Source of the DNA: a bacterium
Lineage (GTDB): Bacteria > UBA10199 > 2-02-FULL-50-16 > JAJFLM01
NCBI GenBank assembly: GCA_965216315.1
Contig: CBDCFN010000016.1
Location: forward strand, 896,001 to 960,000
Length of the DNA: 64,000 nucleotides
Reading direction: 5' to 3'
The first letter of the stretch is position 1, and every line of letters starts with the position of its first letter. Shown piece by piece: positions 9,609 to 38,408 of this stretch. Position numbers and translations under genes: made by a program. The notes beneath the pieces were generated by a model. That model was not told the DNA's origin. It was given only the letters and a program-made list of their open reading frames with translations, and searched no databases.

Positions 9609-9812
9609 TGTTCGTGTTTCCATTCGATTGGTTAGCGGATAATGCGCGACATAGTTTTCTAGAACATTACCAGGAAACGAGCGACGTCAGTGAGTCTTTT
9701 ATGCGCCTAGAGGCGGTGGAAACGTGGGAAGATCTCTTAGTATGGGGTGGTTAGGAAAAACGCAATCCGTCGGTCTGGTGTTTCTCGGTTAGATATGAGA
9801 CAGTGACCGCCC

Positions 9813-10355
9813 ATGGATGATCAATCGCTGGAAAATCTCGTTCAGGCCGTACGCGACCAACACAGTCTGACCTGTCCCAAGTGCAAGAGTGAACTTTATG
9901 TTGTCTATCACGAGGATGTGGAGATCGACACATGCAAGCAGTGCAGCGGGGCGTGGGTCGAGCACATGACCGAGACGATGCTGTTGCGCAATCGCCCGGC
10001 GGGACTTTCCATTGATGAATTAAAGCGTCTCCGCAAAATATATCAACCCCTCGGTAAACTTGATGAGGTGCGCTATTTGCCGTGTCCGGTCTGCGACCAG
10101 ATGATGACCCGCAAGAATTGGGGAGCATCGTCGGGAGTGATTGTCGATCGCTGTGAGCTTCATGGCACCTGGTATGATGACCGGGAGCTGGATAAGATCA
10201 AAGAGTTTGTCCGGCTAGGCGGAATGGAATATGAAAAACTGATGGAACCGCGTAAGGACATGCAACGTTTGACGACCAAGCTCCATCACGAGGTCGAGCG
10301 CCTTGACAATAAGATCCTCCACGCCCGCCTGATGAATTTTTTCTTTGATTTGTAA
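9813..10355 (+). CDS. Double zinc-ribbon (zf-TFIIB-like) protein
   Basis: CPKC..IDTCKQCSGAW and CPVC..VDRCELHGTWYD. Confidence 0.8.
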   Translation: MDDQSLENLVQAVRDQHSLTCPKCKSELYVVYHEDVEIDTCKQCSGAWVEHMTETMLLRNRPAGLSIDELKRLRKIYQPLGKLDEVRYLPCPVCDQMMTRKNWGASSGVIVDRCELHGTWYDDRELDKIKEFVRLGGMEYEKLMEPRKDMQRLTTKLHHEVERLDNKILHARLMNFFFDL

Positions 10356-10451
10356 GCTCTGATTTCCCCTTGTTTCAGCTGCTATTTTCAAGGACAATAT
10401 AGAGAGACAACACCTGATCCCTGCTGGGTTTATGTAGAGGAGGTAGCTGGT

Positions 10452-11330
10452 ATGTGTCGTTTCGTTGTTGCTTTCTTTAGTCTAGGTCTATTGTTCTTGC
10501 CCGCCGGCGTTCAAGCCGCTAACGCCAATCTATTCATCGATGTACTCGATTCGGATACCGACACCGAGTTTGGGGGGGCACAGGTTGTTGAGGTCGTCAT
10601 CATCGATGCGGACAAAAAAGACACGGACAAGCCGGTTGGAGAGCCGGATGTTACCGCGAATGGCAAAGATATCCGGATGGCGCAGTCGGATGACGGGGAT
10701 TGGTATGGCTATATAGCCGATGACATGGAGGCGCAGGATGCCGATGAAGCGGAAGACCCGGACTTCGGGGTGTTTTGCAGCCGTACGACGGCTACAGGAG
10801 TATTGGGCGACGGGAGTACGGTAGGCAACGGTCTGGGGTTTAACGACACGAATGGCGTCGCTGTTGCACGAATCGGGAGTCTGCAAGGCTGGAGCAATGG
10901 CGTTGAAGCTTTCAATGCCTGTACTGGAACGCCGGGAGCGACCTTGCTCTTGAATGAGGCTGTGACGGACCCTCCAGACCTCAATACTTTCGGTAGCCTT
11001 CCCATCGGGCAGATCGGCGTTGATCTCAATGTTTGGCCCTTGGTGCAGCTATATAACTTCAATGTAGGGGTCAACGTAGTGATTCAATACAGTAAAGGTG
11101 GGGGGACGCAGACGCAGACCTTAGCGTACGTCGAAACGCCGCCGGACCCTCCTGATCCAGGGGATGATGATGGAACGGGCGACGGCGGTGACTCTGGAGC
11201 TGATACGGGCGGTGATTCGGGTGCGGAGAGTGGAGTCGACTCGGAAACCGAGAGCGCGGGGAATACGGAATCGAATAGCGAGAACGGCGGCGATTCGAAT
11301 GCCGCGGGTGGCTGTTCGCTACTTCGTTAA
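10452..11330 (+). CDS. Secreted surface protein: thaumarchaeal S-layer-like domain, acidic Gly/Ser linker, GGCSLLR tail
   Basis: SD GAGGAGG; signal peptide ending VQA; motifs ANANLF, QVVEVVIID, GEPDVTANGK.IRMAQ..DGDWYGY, DFGVFC, GQIG, WPLVQLY, VIQYSKGGG. Confidence 0.75.
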   Translation: MCRFVVAFFSLGLLFLPAGVQAANANLFIDVLDSDTDTEFGGAQVVEVVIIDADKKDTDKPVGEPDVTANGKDIRMAQSDDGDWYGYIADDMEAQDADEAEDPDFGVFCSRTTATGVLGDGSTVGNGLGFNDTNGVAVARIGSLQGWSNGVEAFNACTGTPGATLLLNEAVTDPPDLNTFGSLPIGQIGVDLNVWPLVQLYNFNVGVNVVIQYSKGGGTQTQTLAYVETPPDPPDPGDDDGTGDGGDSGADTGGDSGAESGVDSETESAGNTESNSENGGDSNAAGGCSLLR

Positions 11331-11337
11331 ATTTTGG

Positions 11338-12705
11338 CTACTCGCACACCTCATTACGGCAGACTTGTCCTTCCGCACAGTCGCTGTCTTGCGTACAGCT
11401 GGTTGAGCGGACGGGGAGGGCATGGTGGATGACCGTATCCATTATCTGATACTCTTCCTCTTTCTCGATCGGTACCGCTTCCATTTCGACGGTCGAGGCC
11501 GCTTCGTAAGTCCGCGGCATGCAGGTCGGCGAAAAATCATCATAGGTCTCAGAGCTCAAACGCTGCAATGCCGAACCGTCCGGGTTGATCATGTAGATAC
11601 TGCGTGATGGCATTCGACCGGGTTCGCGTGGTAACCCGAAAGAAAAGAAAATCTTTTGATTGTCGTGTGACCAACAGGGCGACGCGTAGTTCCCATTGAC
11701 GAGCGTCGCGTTTTCGATCATGCGAATATTACCGCAGAGGTAGTCACCGTTTCGACTCATGCCGGGTGAAACGCTCAATTCGCAGGTCCAAAGGCGATCA
11801 CGTATTCCGTCGTGGCGCACGAAAACGAGGCGGTTGCCATTCGGGCTAACGGCGACGTCTTTGCCCTCGATGGCTTCAGTGCTATGGGATGATGCGGAAT
11901 GATCTTTGAGGGGAACCAATTCACCGCTTTCGGCATCGACGACAAAGAGCCGATCCGTATCATCGCGAACGGTACGCGTACGCCCCGACTCAATTACGGT
12001 ATAGCTCCCGCGCTTAACCGACACGATCAGTTTATTGAACCAGGGATGGGCCGTATCGCGTATCGGCATCCAGCTTATTCGCCCCAAGGTACGTGTATCT
12101 GCCGAATCATCGCTGACGAGTATGGGTGGCGCTTCGGTGGTGATTGTATAGGGAAGTTCATCGAGGATGCGTATTACCGGATCGCGTCCGCTCGTATTTG
12201 TCGTCACCATGGCAAATTGTTGCCGTGGTCCCCAGGTTGGGTAGTGGGGGGTGAACTGATTACGAAAATGATACAGCGGAATCGATCCGCCCCCATTCAG
12301 TTTCCATACGGTTAAATACGATACGAGCTGTGCTCTGGATGCGTCGGTTTCGATAGCGACGATTTCCGATTGGGCATTGGCCGCCAATGAGCCGTAATGG
12401 AGGGTGTTTAACGTGTTTGGTGTCAGTTGACGCACGGAGGCGGGGGAGCACGTATCCGCATAAAATATATTTTTCACGTTGTGCTCGCGTCGTGAGATGA
12501 AGGCGTAATTGTAGCACTGCTGCTCCAGGGCAGCACGTCCCGGAAAGAAACGAGATCCCATTCGAGGCGTTTGTAGGAGATTGTGCGGAATCATCTGGGG
12601 CCGAACCAGCTGCAGTGACTTGCCGCCTGTAGGCGGCTCGGCTTGAATGACAGGGGTAAATGAACAGGAAAGCAAGAGAACGAACAGGAATGTGAGTTGT
12701 TTCAT
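11338..12705 (-). CDS. Secreted TolB-like (PD40) beta-propeller protein with C-terminal Cys-rich module
   Basis: Signal peptide; YPTWGP, VAVSPNGNRLVFVR, SPCWSHDNQKIFFS, IYMINPDGS; ends CTQDSDCAEGQVCRNEVCE. Confidence 0.75.
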   Translation of the reverse strand: MKQLTFLFVLLLSCSFTPVIQAEPPTGGKSLQLVRPQMIPHNLLQTPRMGSRFFPGRAALEQQCYNYAFISRREHNVKNIFYADTCSPASVRQLTPNTLNTLHYGSLAANAQSEIVAIETDASRAQLVSYLTVWKLNGGGSIPLYHFRNQFTPHYPTWGPRQQFAMVTTNTSGRDPVIRILDELPYTITTEAPPILVSDDSADTRTLGRISWMPIRDTAHPWFNKLIVSVKRGSYTVIESGRTRTVRDDTDRLFVVDAESGELVPLKDHSASSHSTEAIEGKDVAVSPNGNRLVFVRHDGIRDRLWTCELSVSPGMSRNGDYLCGNIRMIENATLVNGNYASPCWSHDNQKIFFSFGLPREPGRMPSRSIYMINPDGSALQRLSSETYDDFSPTCMPRTYEAASTVEMEAVPIEKEEEYQIMDTVIHHALPVRSTSCTQDSDCAEGQVCRNEVCE

Positions 12706-12843
12706 GGCTCGATTTTACCGTTATATAAAGGTTTCTGCAAGTTGCGTGCGCCGGTTGGGTTTAATGTGTTGCTGAATTTGTTTGTTTTTCCGCAGGACCT
12801 ATCTTAAGAGGTTTAAAGCAGTTATAATTAAGTTTGAGGAACT

Positions 12844-21633: not shown

Positions 21634-22204
21634 GTTGTGTCTCCAGACGCATGAGATCTTGCTTCGTGTTGATATTGATGGCCGATGTCCCGGCGAGTGG
21701 GACGCGGACTACATTAGAGGTTTCCCGACAGAACTCCCCCACGGATTTGTTTCCCGAATTCAGGAATGAGTTCATCGCTGCGAGCAGCCCCTTTGAGTAA
21801 ACGCCGAGCGTATAAGCGGCCTTGCCTTCGTATTCCGCAATGGCGATATCCTGCTGGGCTGAATTCTTAATGATCAATTCGATATCGTCGAAGTTGAGGA
21901 GGGGCATGTCACAGGCAACGACAAAAATACGTTGGTTTGACGTCAAACGCAGTGCCGTTGCAATTCCCCCGAGTGGCCCCAAGTTGGGGATATCATCGCA
22001 GACGACTTTGATGGGGAGATTGCGATAAAATTCGGGACTGTTCGTGATGAGCAGTGACTCGGAAAAAAGATGTTTGATGACTTTGAGGATACGAAAGATG
22101 AACGGAACCCCACCGTAGCGGGCGAAGGCTTTGTTTTCACCAAAACGCGATGATTGGCCGCCGGCGAGAATGACGCCGGTTATGTCGGGGTAAGTCGGCT
22201 GCAT
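21623..22204 (-). CDS. mobA: Molybdenum cofactor guanylyltransferase MobA
   Basis: ILAGGQSSRFGENKA, GPLGGI, ACDMP, ININT; start ATG 22204 after AAAGGAG. Confidence 0.93.
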   Translation of the reverse strand: MQPTYPDITGVILAGGQSSRFGENKAFARYGGVPFIFRILKVIKHLFSESLLITNSPEFYRNLPIKVVCDDIPNLGPLGGIATALRLTSNQRIFVVACDMPLLNFDDIELIIKNSAQQDIAIAEYEGKAAYTLGVYSKGLLAAMNSFLNSGNKSVGEFCRETSNVVRVPLAGTSAININTKQDLMRLETQHAS

Positions 22205-22206
22205 AG

Positions 22207-22345
22207 TATCTCCTTTGCAATTCAGTCCTCGCAATTTTCAAGAAAATTGTGGGGACATCGGTAGGTATTGCCGTTTCCAACAATACCCCGCCCCATGTGT
22301 CATACCTTAACTATAAAAAGGCTTAGATCCATGGGGTCGGAGAAA
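22207..22345 (-). ncRNA. Moco/Wco-class riboswitch (MOCO_RNA_motif-like)
   Basis: P1 TCTCC/GGAGA sequesters the mobA SD; P2 CCCCATG..CATGGGG carries the receptor TCTAAG/TATGA; P4 GGTATTGTTG-GAAA-CGGCAATACC; 3' TGCAAAGGAG. Confidence 0.85.
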
Positions 22346-22364
22346 GCTTATATGAAATGCTATC

Positions 22365-33469: not shown

Positions 33470-34060
33470 ATGGAGCGTTTACGGCCTAAATTCATTACAC
33501 TTGCAGTCATTGTCGCTGTAGTCGTGTTGCTGAGTGTCTTGATAAAAGAATGGTATCGGATCGGGATTAACCAAGGGTATGAGCCCGATCAGCCGATTGA
33601 CTATTCACATAAAATTCATGCGGGCGATCATAAAATAGCCTGTTTGTATTGTCACTTTGGCGCGGAAAAGAGCCGTCATGCCGGGATTCCTCCGACGCAG
33701 GTCTGCATGAATTGCCATAGTGTCATTAAGAAAGATTCGCCGGAGATCGCCAAGATAAAAAAAGCGCTCGCGGAAAAGAAGCCGATTGAGTGGGTGAAGG
33801 TCCACAATTTACCAGATTATGTTTACTTTAATCATAAGCAACATGTGAAGGGCGGTGTTTCCTGTCAAGACTGCCATGGCGCCGTGGAGACAATGTCGCG
33901 GGTCAGACAAGTCGAGCCTTTGACGATGGGCTGGTGCATTGAGTGTCATCGCGAAAAAGGTATTACGCCGCCAGAAGGACATTTTACGGAGATGAAGAAA
34001 GGGACAGTAGAGGCCGGTTTCCGCTTTGGTGGAATGGACTGTGCTAAATGTCATTATTAA
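33470..34060 (+). CDS. actA: Alternative complex III pentaheme cytochrome c ActA
   Basis: N-terminal TM; QPIDYSHKIHAG; five CxxCH (CLYCH, CMNCH, CQDCH, CIECH, CAKCH); LTMGWC. Confidence 0.92.
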   Translation: MERLRPKFITLAVIVAVVVLLSVLIKEWYRIGINQGYEPDQPIDYSHKIHAGDHKIACLYCHFGAEKSRHAGIPPTQVCMNCHSVIKKDSPEIAKIKKALAEKKPIEWVKVHNLPDYVYFNHKQHVKGGVSCQDCHGAVETMSRVRQVEPLTMGWCIECHREKGITPPEGHFTEMKKGTVEAGFRFGGMDCAKCHY

Positions 34061-34064
34061 GCCA

Positions 34065-37010
34065 ATGAAACGAGACGAAACAAAAAAAACCTATTGGAAG
34101 TCATTAGAGGAGCTGCATCAGGATCCGGAGTTTCTCGAACAATCAAAGGATGAGTTCCCTGAGTCTGCACCGAATCGCCGTGACTTTCTTAAGCTGATGG
34201 GCTTTAGCGTGACGGCGGCGTCTTTGGCCGCCTGTTCCCGGTCACCGGTGTATAAGGCGATCGCATATCTGGATAAGCCCGTCGATACAACGCCGGGCGT
34301 GGCGAATTACTATGCAACGACCTGCGCCGGCTGTGAAGCGGTCTGTGGCTTGTTGGCAAAAACGCGTGATGGTCGGCCTATTAAAATCGAAGGCAATCCC
34401 GAATCTCCGATAAATACAGGGAGTACCTGTGCGACCGGGCAGGCTTCGGTGCTGTCACTCTACGATGGTGCGCGCCTGCAAGGACCGCAGCTAGCTGCGG
34501 CAAAATCAAGTTGGAATTCGATTGATAAGTCGGTGCGCGAGGGTCTTCAAAGTGCTGTCGCGGCGGGAAAGAAAATAGCTTTGCTGACGGGCACGTTGAT
34601 GAGCCCGACGACACGCCAGCTGATAAGTGAGTTTACTGCGCATTATACGAATGCGGAACATATTACTTATGATCCCGTCTCTGTTGATGCGATTTATGCG
34701 GCCAATCAGGAGAATTTTGGTAAGGCCGTTATTCCCAGTTACCTCTTCGATAAGGCCAATGTCATCGTGGGTGTTAACGCTGACTTTCTGAATACTTGGA
34801 TATCACCGGTCGAGTTTACGCAACGATACAGCAAGGGCCGCAAGCTTGGGGATAAGTCAGAGATGTCGCGGCACGTTCAGTTTGAGTCCTATGTTTCGTT
34901 GACGGGGAGTAATGCCGACCAAAGGGTTGGTATCCAGCCATCGCAACAGGGTTTGGTGCTCTGGGGGTTGCTTGCCGAGATAGCCCGCCTTGCCGGTGGT
35001 GCCTCCGTTCCAACTCCGGATCTGAGTGGTTTGGATGCAGCATTTATTAAGAAAACCGCCCATGAATTGTGGAAGAGTCGCGGCGAGTCTTTAGTGGTGT
35101 CCGGGAGTAATGACGTGGCTCATCAACGTCTTTGCAACGCTATCAATGCGCAATTAGGCAATGTTGGCAGGACGATTGACTTAGATAATCCAATTCGTCG
35201 CAATTCGGGGACTTCTAGGTCGATTCAAGAGCTGGTTGCCGATATGCAGAAAGGGGAGGTTGGCGCGCTTATTATTTATGGTGTCAATCCCGCCTATGAC
35301 TACGCGGAGGCTGAGAAGTTTAAGGAAGGCCTTAAAAAGGTCAAATTATCCGTCTCATTGGATCCTTATCGCACCGAAACGGCGGCGTTAAGTAAGGTGT
35401 TGGCGCCTGATCTTCATTATCTGGAGGCCTGGAATGATGCCGAGGCGAAGGCCAACCTCTTTCACTTAACGCAGCCGACAATAGCGCCGCTCTATAATAC
35501 GCGTGCGGCTCAAGACAGTCTCTTGAAGTGGATGGGAAAGAATACGGATTATTATCATTATCTTAAGGACGCTTGGAAAAGTAAGATTTTTTCGCAGCAA
35601 TCGCGTTTTGCTAGCTTTAAGTCTTTTTGGGATCGCGCCCTGCATGATGGCGGAGTGGCCTTTCCTGCACAGACCCCGAGGCACCATGCCTTTTCGGGCA
35701 ATGTCAGTTCATCCATAGCGCAGGTGAAAGGGCAGCAGGGCAAGGGAGGTTATGAGCTTTATCTTTATGAAAAGGTGGGCGTACGAGATGGCCGCCACGC
35801 AAATAATCCCTGGCTTCAAGAGCTGCCGGATCCCGTTAGCAAAGTGACCTGGGATAATTATGCAAACATGGCGCCTGAGGAAGCGAGCCGTCTGGGTCTG
35901 AAACAGGGAGATATGATTCGACTCAGTGTGGGCAATCGCAAAATCAAATTGCCGGTCTATCTGCAGCCCGGACATCCGGTCAAAACAATTTCTGCGGCCC
36001 TTGGTTACGGGCGCAAGCAGGCGGGGAAGGTTGGGAATAATGTCGGTGGCAACCTCTATCCTTTTGTGACACTAACGAAAGAGTCTTTTATTTATCATTC
36101 AGGCGGGTTGGATGTCAGTAAGTCCACTGGACGGCACAAATTAGCTGTCACGCAAACACACAATTCGATGGAAGGTCGGCCGATTATCAAGGAAACGACA
36201 CTTCCGGCCTATCAGGCGAATCCAAAGTCCGGTAACGAAGACAAAGTTCATTTAGTATCGTTGTGGCCTGAGCATAAATACACTGGGCAGCGCTGGGGGA
36301 TGGCGATCGATTTGAATGCCTGTACGGGGTGTTCGAGTTGTGTGGTTAGCTGTCAGGCGGAGAATAATGTTCCGGTCGTTGGGCAAGACGAAGTCTACCG
36401 GCGTCGCGAGATGCATTGGATAAGGATTGATAGGTACTATAGTGGCACTGAAGAGAATCCCGATGTCGCCCATCAGCCAATGATGTGCCAGCATTGTGCG
36501 AATGCTCCTTGCGAAACGGTCTGTCCGGTGCTTGCCACCGTTCACAGCTCGGATGGGCTGAATCAGCAGGTTTATAATCGCTGTGTGGGGACCCGCTATT
36601 GCGCCAATAACTGTCCGTACAAAGTTAGACGCTTCAATTGGTTTAACTATGCGGACAACGACAAGTTTGATTACAACATGAATAGTGAGATCGGTAAGAT
36701 GGTTCTCAATCCCGATATTGTCGTTCGGTCACGCGGCGTGATGGAGAAATGCTCCATGTGTATCCAACGTATCCAGGAAGGGAAGTTGAAGGCACGGGAT
36801 GAGGGTAGGAAGGTGAAAGACGGGGATATCCAGATGGCATGCCAGCAGTCCTGTCCGTCAGATGCTATTGTATTTGGCGACTTGAGCGATCCTAAAAGTC
36901 GCATTTCGAAGCTTGTTAAAAATGATCGTTATTATCGCGTCTTAGAAGAGCTGAATGTACAACCCGTTGTGGGTTATCTGACGAAAGTTAGGAATATTGA
37001 GAAGGGTTAA
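34065..37010 (+). CDS. actB: Alternative complex III subunit ActB (Tat lipoprotein, Mo-less molybdopterin fold plus Fe-S domain)
   Basis: YWKSLEEL, NRRDFLK..LAAC, NNPWLQELPDP, CTGCSSCVVSC, CQHCANAPCETVCP, CVGTRYCANNCPY, EKCSMC; start moved to ATG 34065. Confidence 0.94.
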   Translation: MKRDETKKTYWKSLEELHQDPEFLEQSKDEFPESAPNRRDFLKLMGFSVTAASLAACSRSPVYKAIAYLDKPVDTTPGVANYYATTCAGCEAVCGLLAKTRDGRPIKIEGNPESPINTGSTCATGQASVLSLYDGARLQGPQLAAAKSSWNSIDKSVREGLQSAVAAGKKIALLTGTLMSPTTRQLISEFTAHYTNAEHITYDPVSVDAIYAANQENFGKAVIPSYLFDKANVIVGVNADFLNTWISPVEFTQRYSKGRKLGDKSEMSRHVQFESYVSLTGSNADQRVGIQPSQQGLVLWGLLAEIARLAGGASVPTPDLSGLDAAFIKKTAHELWKSRGESLVVSGSNDVAHQRLCNAINAQLGNVGRTIDLDNPIRRNSGTSRSIQELVADMQKGEVGALIIYGVNPAYDYAEAEKFKEGLKKVKLSVSLDPYRTETAALSKVLAPDLHYLEAWNDAEAKANLFHLTQPTIAPLYNTRAAQDSLLKWMGKNTDYYHYLKDAWKSKIFSQQSRFASFKSFWDRALHDGGVAFPAQTPRHHAFSGNVSSSIAQVKGQQGKGGYELYLYEKVGVRDGRHANNPWLQELPDPVSKVTWDNYANMAPEEASRLGLKQGDMIRLSVGNRKIKLPVYLQPGHPVKTISAALGYGRKQAGKVGNNVGGNLYPFVTLTKESFIYHSGGLDVSKSTGRHKLAVTQTHNSMEGRPIIKETTLPAYQANPKSGNEDKVHLVSLWPEHKYTGQRWGMAIDLNACTGCSSCVVSCQAENNVPVVGQDEVYRRREMHWIRIDRYYSGTEENPDVAHQPMMCQHCANAPCETVCPVLATVHSSDGLNQQVYNRCVGTRYCANNCPYKVRRFNWFNYADNDKFDYNMNSEIGKMVLNPDIVVRSRGVMEKCSMCIQRIQEGKLKARDEGRKVKDGDIQMACQQSCPSDAIVFGDLSDPKSRISKLVKNDRYYRVLEELNVQPVVGYLTKVRNIEKG

Positions 37011-38408
37011 GTGATGATATCAGCCGCTGAAAATGAGAGGCCATCAGCTAACGTTGTGCGCGGAGTCAGCAAACTCCGCCAGATTACCGCGGAAGTCTTA
37101 CGTCCATTGGAGACGCGCCCGGGAGCGGCTTGGTGGCTGACCTTTGCGGTCGCGTGCTCGGCCTTAGGAGTGGGGGCCGTAATGATCGCCTATCAGATTG
37201 CCGTTGGTATCGGCGTTTGGGGGCTCAATAAAACGATTGGCTGGGCCTTTGACATCACTAACTTCGTGTTCTGGATTGGTATTGGTCATGCCGGAACCCT
37301 GATTTCGGCTATTCTACTATTATTTAGACAGCGTTGGCGTAATTCGATTAATAGAGCTGCCGAGGCCATGACGATTTTTGCCGTGATGTGCGCCGGTATC
37401 TTTCCCGTCATTCATATGGGACGTCCATGGCTCGCCTATTGGGTCTTTCCCTATCCAAACACGCGTGGTTCGCTGTGGGTCAATTTTCGCTCACCGCTGT
37501 TATGGGATGTCGTCGCGATTAGCACCTATTTCACGATCTCTTTTGTTTTCTGGTATATCGGAATGATCCCCGACCTAGCCTTGATGCGTGATCGGGCTAA
37601 AGCCGGGATCAAGAAGAAGCTCTGCGCCCTATTTAGCATGGGTTGGAATGGTTCACAACGTACCTGGGCACGTTATGAGATGCTCTGTTTGATCTTGGCC
37701 GGTTTGGCCGCGCCGCTTGTAGTCTCGGTTCATACCATTGTGAGTATGGACTTTGCCACGTCCGTTATTCCTGGGTGGCACACGACTATTTTTCCGCCAT
37801 ATTTCGTCGTTGGGGCGGTTTTCTCCGGCTTCGGGATGGTCATGACGCTGATGATCATCACCAGAAAGGTGATGAACTGGGAAAAATACATTACTTTGCA
37901 ACATCTCCAGGCGATGGCCAAGGTTCTGCTTGTAACGGGTTCGATAGTCGGATTTGCGTACTTAACCGAGTTTTTTATGGCTTGGTATAGTGGTAACCAA
38001 TTTGAGCTATTTACCTTTGTTAATCGCGCAACCGGGCCTTATTGGTGGGCCTACTGGATCATGATGAGCTCAAACTTGATTGCGCCCCAGCTTTTTTGGT
38101 TTAGGAAGGTTCGCAACAGCGTTCCGATGATGTTCTTCCTCTCTATCATCGTTAATATCGGGATGTGGTTTGAGCGTTTCGTAATCATCGTAACCTCGCT
38201 TCATCGAGATTACCTGCCGTCGAGTTGGGCGATGTATACGCCGACTGTGATTGAGGTTGGCACGTTGATCGGGAGCTTCGGACTCTTCTTTACCGCGTAT
38301 CTACTTTTTATTCGCGTGCTGCCGGCGATTGCAATCAATGAGGTGAAAGCGATTACCAAGCTGGACACTGATTCGAGTGATTCGGAGGAGGCTGTGTCTC
38401 ATGGTTAA
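37011..38408 (+). CDS. actC: Alternative complex III quinol-binding subunit ActC (NrfD family)
   Basis: [52 protein letters not shown]. Confidence 0.95.

Follow-up and report, generated by a model that had tools for sequence, protein, structure and literature searches.

We analysed a stretch of bacterial DNA of 64,000 nucleotides (nt), referred to here as the window, which spans 896-960 kb of a 2,397,981-bp contig of assembly GCA_965216315.1. One of its genes encodes a 292-amino-acid (aa) protein with an N-terminal domain that is truly homologous to domain 1 (D1) of NmSLP (Nmar_1547), the surface-layer (S-layer) protein of Nitrosopumilus maritimus, one of the ammonia-oxidising archaea (AOA); a chance match is excluded by a wide margin. 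D1 is the only folded part of this protein, and the remainder consists of a low-complexity stalk and a tail of seven residues. What is new is that a known archaeal S-layer domain is found in a bacterial host, in a minimal architecture and joined to a variant form of a sorting signal known from bacteria. We hold the identity and the architecture of the protein with high confidence, and we grade the readings of its history and function separately below.

To identify the domain we searched all chains of the Protein Data Bank (PDB) with phmmer. A single chain, 8c8k_A, was matched significantly (E = 3.5e-37, 131.6 bits), with query residues 19-226 aligned to its residues 33-256. In the N. maritimus S-layer entries this chain is named "Cell surface protein" and has 1,734 aa. 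A preliminary description of this DNA, made from the letters alone, had named a series of Nitrosopumilus S-layer blocks and placed them here in the same order. Each of them is present in the 8c8k_A alignment, in order: ANANLF, QV.EVV.ID, GEPDVT.NGK..RM.Q..DG.WYGY.AD, DFGVFC, GQIG, WP..QLY and VV.QY.KGGG.Q..TL. The same description had listed a Sec signal, a domain of ~205 aa (10518-11132), a Pro/Asp/Gly/Ser stalk and a GGCSLLR end, all of which we read in the translation. The Pfam scan of the 292-aa protein returned no family, there being no Pfam model for the domain, and the NCBIfam scan returned only low-complexity noise from ClfA/ClfB on the stalk.

The predicted structure agrees with the sequence match. 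A model of the domain built with AlphaFold 2 (AF2) from a 54-sequence alignment had a mean pLDDT of 94.7 and a pTM of 0.91. When this model was searched with Foldseek, the only matches were the NmSLP entries 8c8l/m/n/r (E ~1e-17, TM-score 0.77-0.80), and the next match had an E of 0.7. With VIA-align, model residues 1-205 were superposed onto NmSLP residues 37-257 with Z 25.5 and a root-mean-square deviation of 2.1 A over 194 aligned residues (43% identity). The controls were far lower: Z 5.3 for the best unrelated chain and Z 6.9 for another Ig-like (immunoglobulin-like) domain of NmSLP. A comparison of the AlphaFold monomer with the N. maritimus S-layer had been proposed in the preliminary description, and its outcome bears out the homology suggested there.

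The domain also begins where it should. Residues 1-22 of the protein look like a typical Sec signal, with a single basic residue, a hydrophobic core and VQA at the end, after which cleavage is predicted. The predicted first mature residue, Ala23, is residue 1 of the model and aligns to NmSLP residue 37. In the structure report (von Kuegelgen et al., Nature 2024, PMC11153153), the model built into the cryo-electron tomography map starts at residue 37. The mature bacterial and archaeal proteins therefore begin at an equivalent point, as had been claimed from the signal cleavage site. Within the domain, 41 alignment columns reach 90% conservation or more, and the bacterial D1 agrees with 36 of them; the other five show Val to Ile, Ser to Asp, Phe to Ile, one gap and Val to Ala. 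Both members of the near-invariant Cys pair are present too.

NmSLP is described as an array of ten Ig-like domains (PMC11153153). The bacterial protein resembles it in the sequence (38-43% identity) and predicted fold of D1, in the placement of D1 at the mature N-terminus right behind the signal peptide, and in the conserved Cys pair and acidic character (NmSLP structures: PDB 8c8k-8c8o, 8c8r). In contrast, it has one of the ten Ig-like domains and 292 aa as opposed to 1,734 aa, the lattice-building domains D2-D10 are missing, and it is encoded in a bacterial genome with a bacterial Cys tail at its C-terminus, whereas NmSLP is encoded by an archaeon. It is thus not a complete NmSLP-type S-layer protein, being without the array of about ten domains and not AOA-encoded. 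The parts of the gene are listed in Table 1. Its ATG is the first start codon past an in-frame stop upstream, and the stalk and tail together have a net charge of -16.

Table 1. Parts of the D1-bearing gene, in window coordinates
Feature	Coordinates	Strand	Description and basis
Single open reading frame (ORF)	10452..11330	+	292 aa, ATG start; ORF listing and translation
Shine-Dalgarno-like GAGGAGG	10437..10443	+	8 nt before the ATG; seen in sequence
Predicted Sec-type signal peptide	10452..10517	+	Residues 1-22 (MCRF...GVQA); translation, by inspection
D1 domain of AOA S-layer proteins	10518..11132	+	Residues 23-227, elaborated Ig-like fold; phmmer, AF2, Foldseek, VIA-align
Acidic low-complexity stalk	11133..11306	+	Residues 228-285, Pro/Asp/Gly/Ser/Glu/Thr; translation
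C-terminal tail GGCSLLR and stop codon	11307..11330	+	Residues 286-292 (Cys288); translation, genome tail comparison

The host is a bacterium, and there was no sign of misassembly. The window encodes FeoB, ClpA, NarG, NarH, NarK, MoaA, MoaC/MoaB, MoeA, FadE and a TIGR02147-family protein, and the nearest named relatives of its ClpA (~70% identity) come from metagenome-assembled genomes (MAGs) labelled "Deltaproteobacteria bacterium" or "bacterium". The genome is 2.96 Mb in size and 98.3% complete. One possibility is that an error of assembly or binning joined an archaeal fragment to bacterial DNA, as could be imagined for a metagenome-type assembly of 16 contigs. However, a single reading frame holds both the archaeal-type domain and a tail peculiar to this bacterium, and an independent metagenomic protein, P0002, has the same domain-tail fusion. 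The composition of the gene is native: its G+C content (GC) is 0.561 (genome 0.518 +/- 0.042), its GC at third codon positions (GC3) is 0.582 (genome 0.56 +/- 0.076), and 23.5% of 826 ORFs of similar size are equally or more deviant in codon usage. By comparison, GC lies at 0.32-0.49 in 160 loci retrieved from archaeal genomes and from metagenomes. Furthermore, two Logan contigs (7,754 nt and 23,898 nt), which come from two samples within a single study, each span positions 9700-12800 with 0 differences and so cover the gene with its flanks, although this check is not fully independent because both samples may be the genome's own source. We consider an artefact extremely improbable, and the bacterial setting without a chimeric assembly, as first described, holds on gene content, spanning contigs and codon usage. 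Run X5, from a second study, contributed only a 241-nt piece (11151-11391), which is too little for habitat or strain. Among the sequencing runs listed as containing the gene there was no RNA run.

To see where the domain occurs we searched 1.84 billion cluster representatives with residues 23-227. This search gave 465 clusters at E <= 1e-3, 302 at E <= 1e-10 and 39 at E <= 1e-30, and P0002 (53%) was the sole match above 50% identity. Among 185,579 species genomes we confirmed 485 loci; the best 80 of the 485 were all archaeal with identities of at most 46%, and 79 of these were named to Nitrososphaerota/Thaumarchaeota lineages while one was labelled just "archaeon". The nearest clusters in the ESM Atlas were likewise archaeal. 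All named longer proteins with D1 belonged to Nitrosopumilus, Nitrosarchaeum, Nitrosotenuis or "Nitrososphaerota archaeon", and the identity of the bacterial D1 to any archaeal copy was at most 46-47%. The 194 D1 homologues ranged in length from ~180 to 4,122 aa with varied C-terminal parts. D1 was nearly always N-terminal (starting within the first 70 residues in 180 of 194), and the two main archaeal architectures were of ~1,060 aa and of ~1,700-1,960 aa.

One D1-headed protein of 2,170 aa, P0131, also matched the NCBIfam model of the anammox Kustd1514-family S-layer glycoprotein (E 5e-15, residues 1117-1354) and carried CARDB and dockerin domains; P0109, described below, matched the same model weakly. 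These model matches are a hint that the S-layer proteins of the AOA type and of the anammox type may be distantly linked. On a metagenome contig of GC 0.34 (locus L133, 6135-8291, + strand), a D1-headed ORF of at least 719 aa ran into Cys-rich C..CGDG-type repeats at the contig end, which is unusual for low-GC DNA.

Around the host itself the domain was absent. The sample of its phylum comprised 93 genomes, all of one class, of which 63 were of high quality (host included in both counts). None of the 92 other genomes matched at E <= 1e-5, and none of the host's 40 nearest relatives (0/40) had the domain. Bacterial-type carriers made up at most 9 of the 194 homologues. The domain is therefore overwhelmingly archaeal, yet it is not unique to this bacterium: there are at least two other bacterial-type carriers besides P0002. 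The rarity in bacteria that had been expected is thus supported by the phylum count and by the best 80 loci, but the protein is not a one-off.

The closest of these carriers is the orthologue P0002 (306 aa, from the Joint Genome Institute, JGI), which has a signal peptide, D1, an acidic stalk and a Cys tail and is 50% identical overall. Its signal peptide can be aligned with that of the 292-aa protein. Metagenome scans for the contig of P0002 returned only archaeal-type loci of at most 47% identity. Two other cases are more distant. P0109 (957 aa) falls in one 90% cluster with P0200, a protein of a "Myxococcota bacterium" MAG. P0119 (611 aa) has D1, D2, Cys-rich repeats and a tail of GGCSC, a transmembrane (TM) helix and RRRR, and carries the JGI label "MYXO-CTERM domain-containing protein". 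P0109/P0200 and P0119 resemble the protein studied here in that an AOA-type D1 stands N-terminal on a protein with a bacterial surface-sorting tail. They differ from it in keeping D2 and further parts and in having full-length tails with a TM helix. We take them to be separate acquisitions because they occupy other positions in the tree. Together with the Myxococcota and MYXO-CTERM carriers, the gene suggests that bacteria repeatedly found D1 useful.

Five D1-D2 proteins of ~420-445 aa (P0092, P0095, P0107, P0125 and P0158) were also considered as bacterial. They end in VPE[PV], a TM helix and basic residues, a tail that we take to resemble the bacterial PEP-CTERM signal. However, NCBIfam gave no match at E <= 0.01 for P0092, P0095, P0107 and P0125, and Pfam gave none for P0092. 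The AOA have a similar signal of their own, PEFG-CTERM, which NCBIfam matched in P0096 and P0153. Because of the missing NCBIfam match and the similarity to PEFG-CTERM, we did not count the five proteins as bacterial.

For the phylogeny, 311 full-coverage domains were filtered at 70% identity to 151 rows, and an unrooted tree was built with IQ-TREE (LG+C20+F+G4, quick search) with support from the SH-like approximate likelihood-ratio test (SH-aLRT). The protein studied here (P0001) and P0002 formed a pair with an SH-aLRT of 99. This pair lay inside a 43-row set (98) with a 36-row clade of the ~1,060-aa AOA proteins (99) and four of the VPE-tailed proteins, while P0109 and P0119 fell in the other half of the tree. 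A re-analysis of 69 rows agreed, with 97 for the pair and 86 for five VPE-tailed rows.

The ~1,060-aa proteins of the Nitrosopumilaceae have the closest archaeal D1 (up to 46% identity), in a supported tree group with the bacterial pair. They differ from the pair in being long and multi-domain, with a conserved C-terminal end of the ...YLVKKGIIRV type. NCBI names the family "peptidase" (for example in Nitrosopumilus ureiphilus and Nitrosarchaeum koreense), it has a weak MG2 match, and no study of its function turned up in the literature searched. The preliminary description had assigned the domain to the Nmar_1547/Nmar_1201 type. The homology to D1 of NmSLP stands, but the nearest archaeal relatives belong to the ~1,060-aa paralogue family and not to the ~1,700-aa type, and this family is most likely the closest to the donor side. 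Three full-length members of this family, of ~1,040-1,060 aa (P0189, P0043 and P0098), had a strongly high-GC amino-acid make-up, with GARP/FYMINK values of up to 5.1 (family median 0.84). One of the three lies on a 3.17-Mb NCBI contig, and their hosts may not be Nitrosopumilales.

The economical reading of these data would be transfer from archaea to bacteria, in at least three events, because the archaeal diversity is vast, the domain is absent elsewhere in the host phylum and the bacterial carriers are few and scattered. The converse is that the domain is of bacterial origin, was passed to an ancestor of the AOA and expanded there, and that the gene in the window is a vertical remnant. Such an origin would be allowed by the tree, which has no root and in which the pair falls outside the 36-row AOA clade. 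However, it would have to account for a phylum in which none of 92 other genomes carries the domain, for bacterial-type carriers that are few (at most 9 of 194) and are scattered over at least three positions between archaeal sequences, and for the purely archaeal best 80 of 485 genome loci. We regard bacterial origin as very unlikely. As for the acquisition of one S-layer protein domain across the domains of life, which had been proposed at the outset, homology and rarity outside archaea (0/92) speak for it, and its direction comes from an unrooted tree.

The low identity to AOA copies, the native composition, the 50% divergence of the orthologue and the retention of 36 of 41 conserved columns and the Cys pair point to a transfer that was old and was followed by retention. 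A viral vector was considered and found no support. The one match among viral contigs (L179, 33% identity) was a 1,636-aa ORF without PHROG-positive neighbours on DNA of GC 0.36-0.40, and BFVD gave 0 matches at E <= 0.001. Whatever the route, a bacterial D1 on a stalk shows that D1 is an autonomous, transferable module.

To assess the scaffold on which D1 is carried we compared C-termini across the genome. Twenty ORFs, this gene (C16:906355) and 19 others, end in G-[GSA]-C-[ST]-[LIVFM]-x plus 1-4 residues. The last residues are mostly basic (R, RR, RK, RF, RY, RRP, LKR, RSIH, or K alone). The 292-aa protein ends in SLLR, 4 residues past its Cys, and the other 19 short tails extend 4 to 6. A Gly/Ser/Asp-rich linker, similarly acidic, usually precedes the short tails, and many of these proteins have Cys-rich DGNT..GDGC repeats. 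A long form occurs in at least 11 other proteins, in which GGCSL is followed by a spacer, a TM helix and RRR (sites include C15:254295-254393, C16:2205643-2205741 and C16:463757-463861); one of the long tails passes the TIGR03901 cut-off. The lineage-specific scaffold, which the preliminary description had proposed as one for display, is real in that the stalk and tail are common to 19 other proteins of the genome. The short tail is the signature of the genome's myxosortase-type Cys sorting signal without the helix, since the same GGCSL opens the full tripartite tails. The 292-aa protein did not match TIGR03901 of NCBIfam at E <= 1, and a genome-wide scan with this model gave 11 other sites and not this gene.

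The known system that it resembles is the MYXO-CTERM/myxosortase system (Haft 2023 preprint, 10.1101/2023.06.07.544157; Guo, Haft and Wall, mBio 2025, PMC11980579), an example being TraA of Myxococcus xanthus. According to PMC11980579, MYXO-CTERM proteins of M. xanthus undergo Cys-dependent cleavage by the myxosortase MrtX, are predicted to be lipidated and reach the surface via type II secretion. The likeness covers the N-terminal head, the stalk and the C-terminal motif with an invariant Cys (here GGC288S), the occurrence of the tail on many otherwise unrelated exported proteins of one genome, and the presence in that genome of a myxosortase-family CPBP protease and a type II secretin. The difference is that the tail here stops 4 residues past the Cys, without a TM helix and with one Arg, and is below TIGR03901.

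The genome has exactly one CPBP/Rce1-like gene (PF02517). This gene passes the NF040914 Mrt_core model (118.1 bits, cut-off 100), and its closest equivalog is MrtP (175.8 bits, below the cut-off of 250). Directly beside it is an Lgt-like gene (103 bits to TIGR00544, below the cut-off of 118.9). At this locus (L164, C16:1903461-1906751; ORFs 1465-2256 and 2114-2965, both on the - strand) the CPBP gene overlaps the end of the Lgt-like prolipoprotein diacylglyceryl transferase gene, and this overlap suggests coupled lipidation and cleavage of Cys tails. A type II secretin, GspD, is encoded as well (522 bits, above cut-off). By analogy with the MYXO-CTERM proteins, we infer that the helix-less tail takes the same route. 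With helix-less and full-length Cys tails and a single myxosortase in one genome, this bacterium offers a favourable case in which to study the processing of tails without a helix.

AOA rank among Earth's most abundant microbes, and their outer face consists wholly of the S-layer. A domain of this layer in a bacterium is a possible means of contact between the two. We propose that D1 would have entered a bacterial ancestor by an old transfer from AOA and would then have been fused to the host's own scaffold, the flexible acidic stalk and the GGCSLLR tail. By analogy with MYXO-CTERM proteins, Cys288 would be lipidated, an Lgt-like gene being present beside the protease gene, the last residues would be removed by the genome's single myxosortase-family CPBP protease, and the protein would reach the cell surface via the type II secretion system. 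There D1 would be held at the far end of the stalk as a binding head, that is, an adhesin, aimed at an AOA S-layer or another D1-bearing protein. The chain taken as a whole is plausible, at somewhat below an even chance.

Within this proposal, a head that binds AOA S-layers or other D1-bearing proteins is the likeliest role, which we put forward tentatively. It is ranked first because D1 is a lattice-contact module, belongs to the outward face of AOA, is N-terminal in many AOA proteins and was captured by more than one bacterial lineage in the same orientation. The structure report (PMC11153153) places the N-terminus of NmSLP at the centre of the hexamer, where it builds a two-fold symmetric central pore, and describes a negative charge that grows from the outside to the membrane, following the chain from N- to C-terminus. 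D1 is therefore the outward-facing end. TraA-like surface adhesins and receptors show a similar design, with a distal head domain, a flexible acidic stalk and a lipid-type anchor. No partner, predator or adhesin recognising an AOA S-layer turned up in the literature searched, and a bacterial D1 on a stalk would be a small, easily expressed probe for binding partners of the AOA S-layer.

Several observations weigh against the proposal. The short tail has no TM helix and no Arg-rich cluster and ends in a single Arg; because it lacks the helix and falls below the MYXO-CTERM model, its processing by a myxosortase is to be read as an analogy and not as a result. The chemistry lining the pore appears not to be fully conserved. 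Putative cation densities are reported near Asp73 and Glu74 at the central pore of NmSLP (PMC11153153), and by a manual count in an ungapped block of the phmmer alignment Asp73 corresponds to Asp59 here and Glu74 to Lys60, while P0002 keeps both acidic residues. The acidity of the protein does not single out cation or ammonium binding, because it is common to all 20 tail-bearing proteins. Finally, the pair sits in a polytomy of an unrooted tree, so that the direction and the number of transfers are what we infer.

The acidity itself is considerable. D1 here has a net charge of -24 as compared to a median of -11.3, and is more acidic than 95% of 310 homologues. On the other hand, all 20 short-tail proteins are acidic, with -3.7 to -17.8 net charges per 100 aa (proteome median -0.75), and this protein, at -13.4, is typical of the group. 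We therefore rejected acidity as an argument for ammonium binding, since it characterises the whole tail class. It looks like an adaptation to the host norm rather than a means of ammonium capture.

These data bear on another explanation: that D1, acquired from AOA long ago, is no longer linked to archaea and is now an Ig-like module of generic use in surface coating or cation binding, one of many acidic tail-anchored proteins that make up a polyanionic coat. We judge such a role somewhat unlikely in itself, and nearly as likely as an AOA-binding head. It would fit the strong acidity of all 20 short-tail proteins, among which this one is typical, and the charge of D1, which is as far from the homologue median as if it had adapted to the host. 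The native codon usage and the identity of at most 47% to any AOA copy fit it too, as does the non-specific cation binding by the NmSLP lattice in simulations, reported in PMC11153153. However, a generic coat requires no particular fold, yet 36 of 41 conserved columns and the Cys pair were kept here, and the orthologue P0002 retains the whole layout at 50% identity. The same N-terminal module was also captured independently by other bacteria, which suggests a property of D1 itself.

Another possibility is that the displayed copies of D1 self-associate into rings or a sparse S-layer-like array belonging to the bacterium. The retained fold and conserved positions are compatible with such an array, and so is the meeting of the N-terminal domains at the central pore of NmSLP. 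The structure report (PMC11153153), however, describes a hexamer held together by many domains, with its six-fold symmetry broken at the N-terminus, so D1 alone may not oligomerise. The long flexible stalk is also unlike lattice proteins, and we consider self-assembly improbable.

To return to the AOA-binding head, a more specific version of it can be formulated. Several bacterial lineages may independently have captured D1 or D1-D2 and placed it on sorting tails of their own, where it would dock homotypically by recognising the D1 rosette at the centres of AOA hexamers. This version is speculative, and we think it unlikely. If it were true, the bacterium would fasten itself to AOA cells in order to prey on them or to exchange nitrogen compounds, and a lattice protein would have been copied across the domains of life as its own receptor ligand.

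In the literature on Nmar_1547/Nmar_1201 and on AOA S-layer transfer, titles and the beginnings of abstracts describe no bacterial homologues. The homologue search in the NmSLP structure report (PMC11153153) was made in an archaea-only subset of nr, and the supplements of that report may list homologues.

The surroundings of the gene are less informative. A promoter scan upstream of the ORF found no sigma-70-like site, and a terminator scan found a weak terminator-like stem across the stop codon that was no stronger than in shuffles. The upstream neighbour, 96 bp away, encodes a Zn-ribbon protein. The downstream neighbour is convergent, ends 8 bp away and encodes an exported protein with weak PD40 and Cys-knot matches; a fatty-acid desaturase gene lies nearby. 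None of these three adjacent genes gave a clue to function. A synteny check in the three closest relatives was uninformative: it recovered no counterpart of the Zn-ribbon gene, and its match to the downstream gene was weak and lay elsewhere.

Two further features were seen elsewhere in the window. A molybdenum cofactor (Moco) riboswitch (RF01055, 54.6 bits; 22194-22354, - strand) stands upstream of the moaA-moaC/B-moeA run, which adjoins the narGH-narK nitrate reductase cluster. Positions 34026-38408 (+ strand), a short way downstream of the nar genes, encode a 994-aa protein in which molybdopterin-like and Fe-S parts are fused (QrcB/QrcC-like, with a variant twin-arginine translocation (TAT) signal) followed by a DsrP/NrfD-like membrane protein; this module looks like one of the alternative complex III type.

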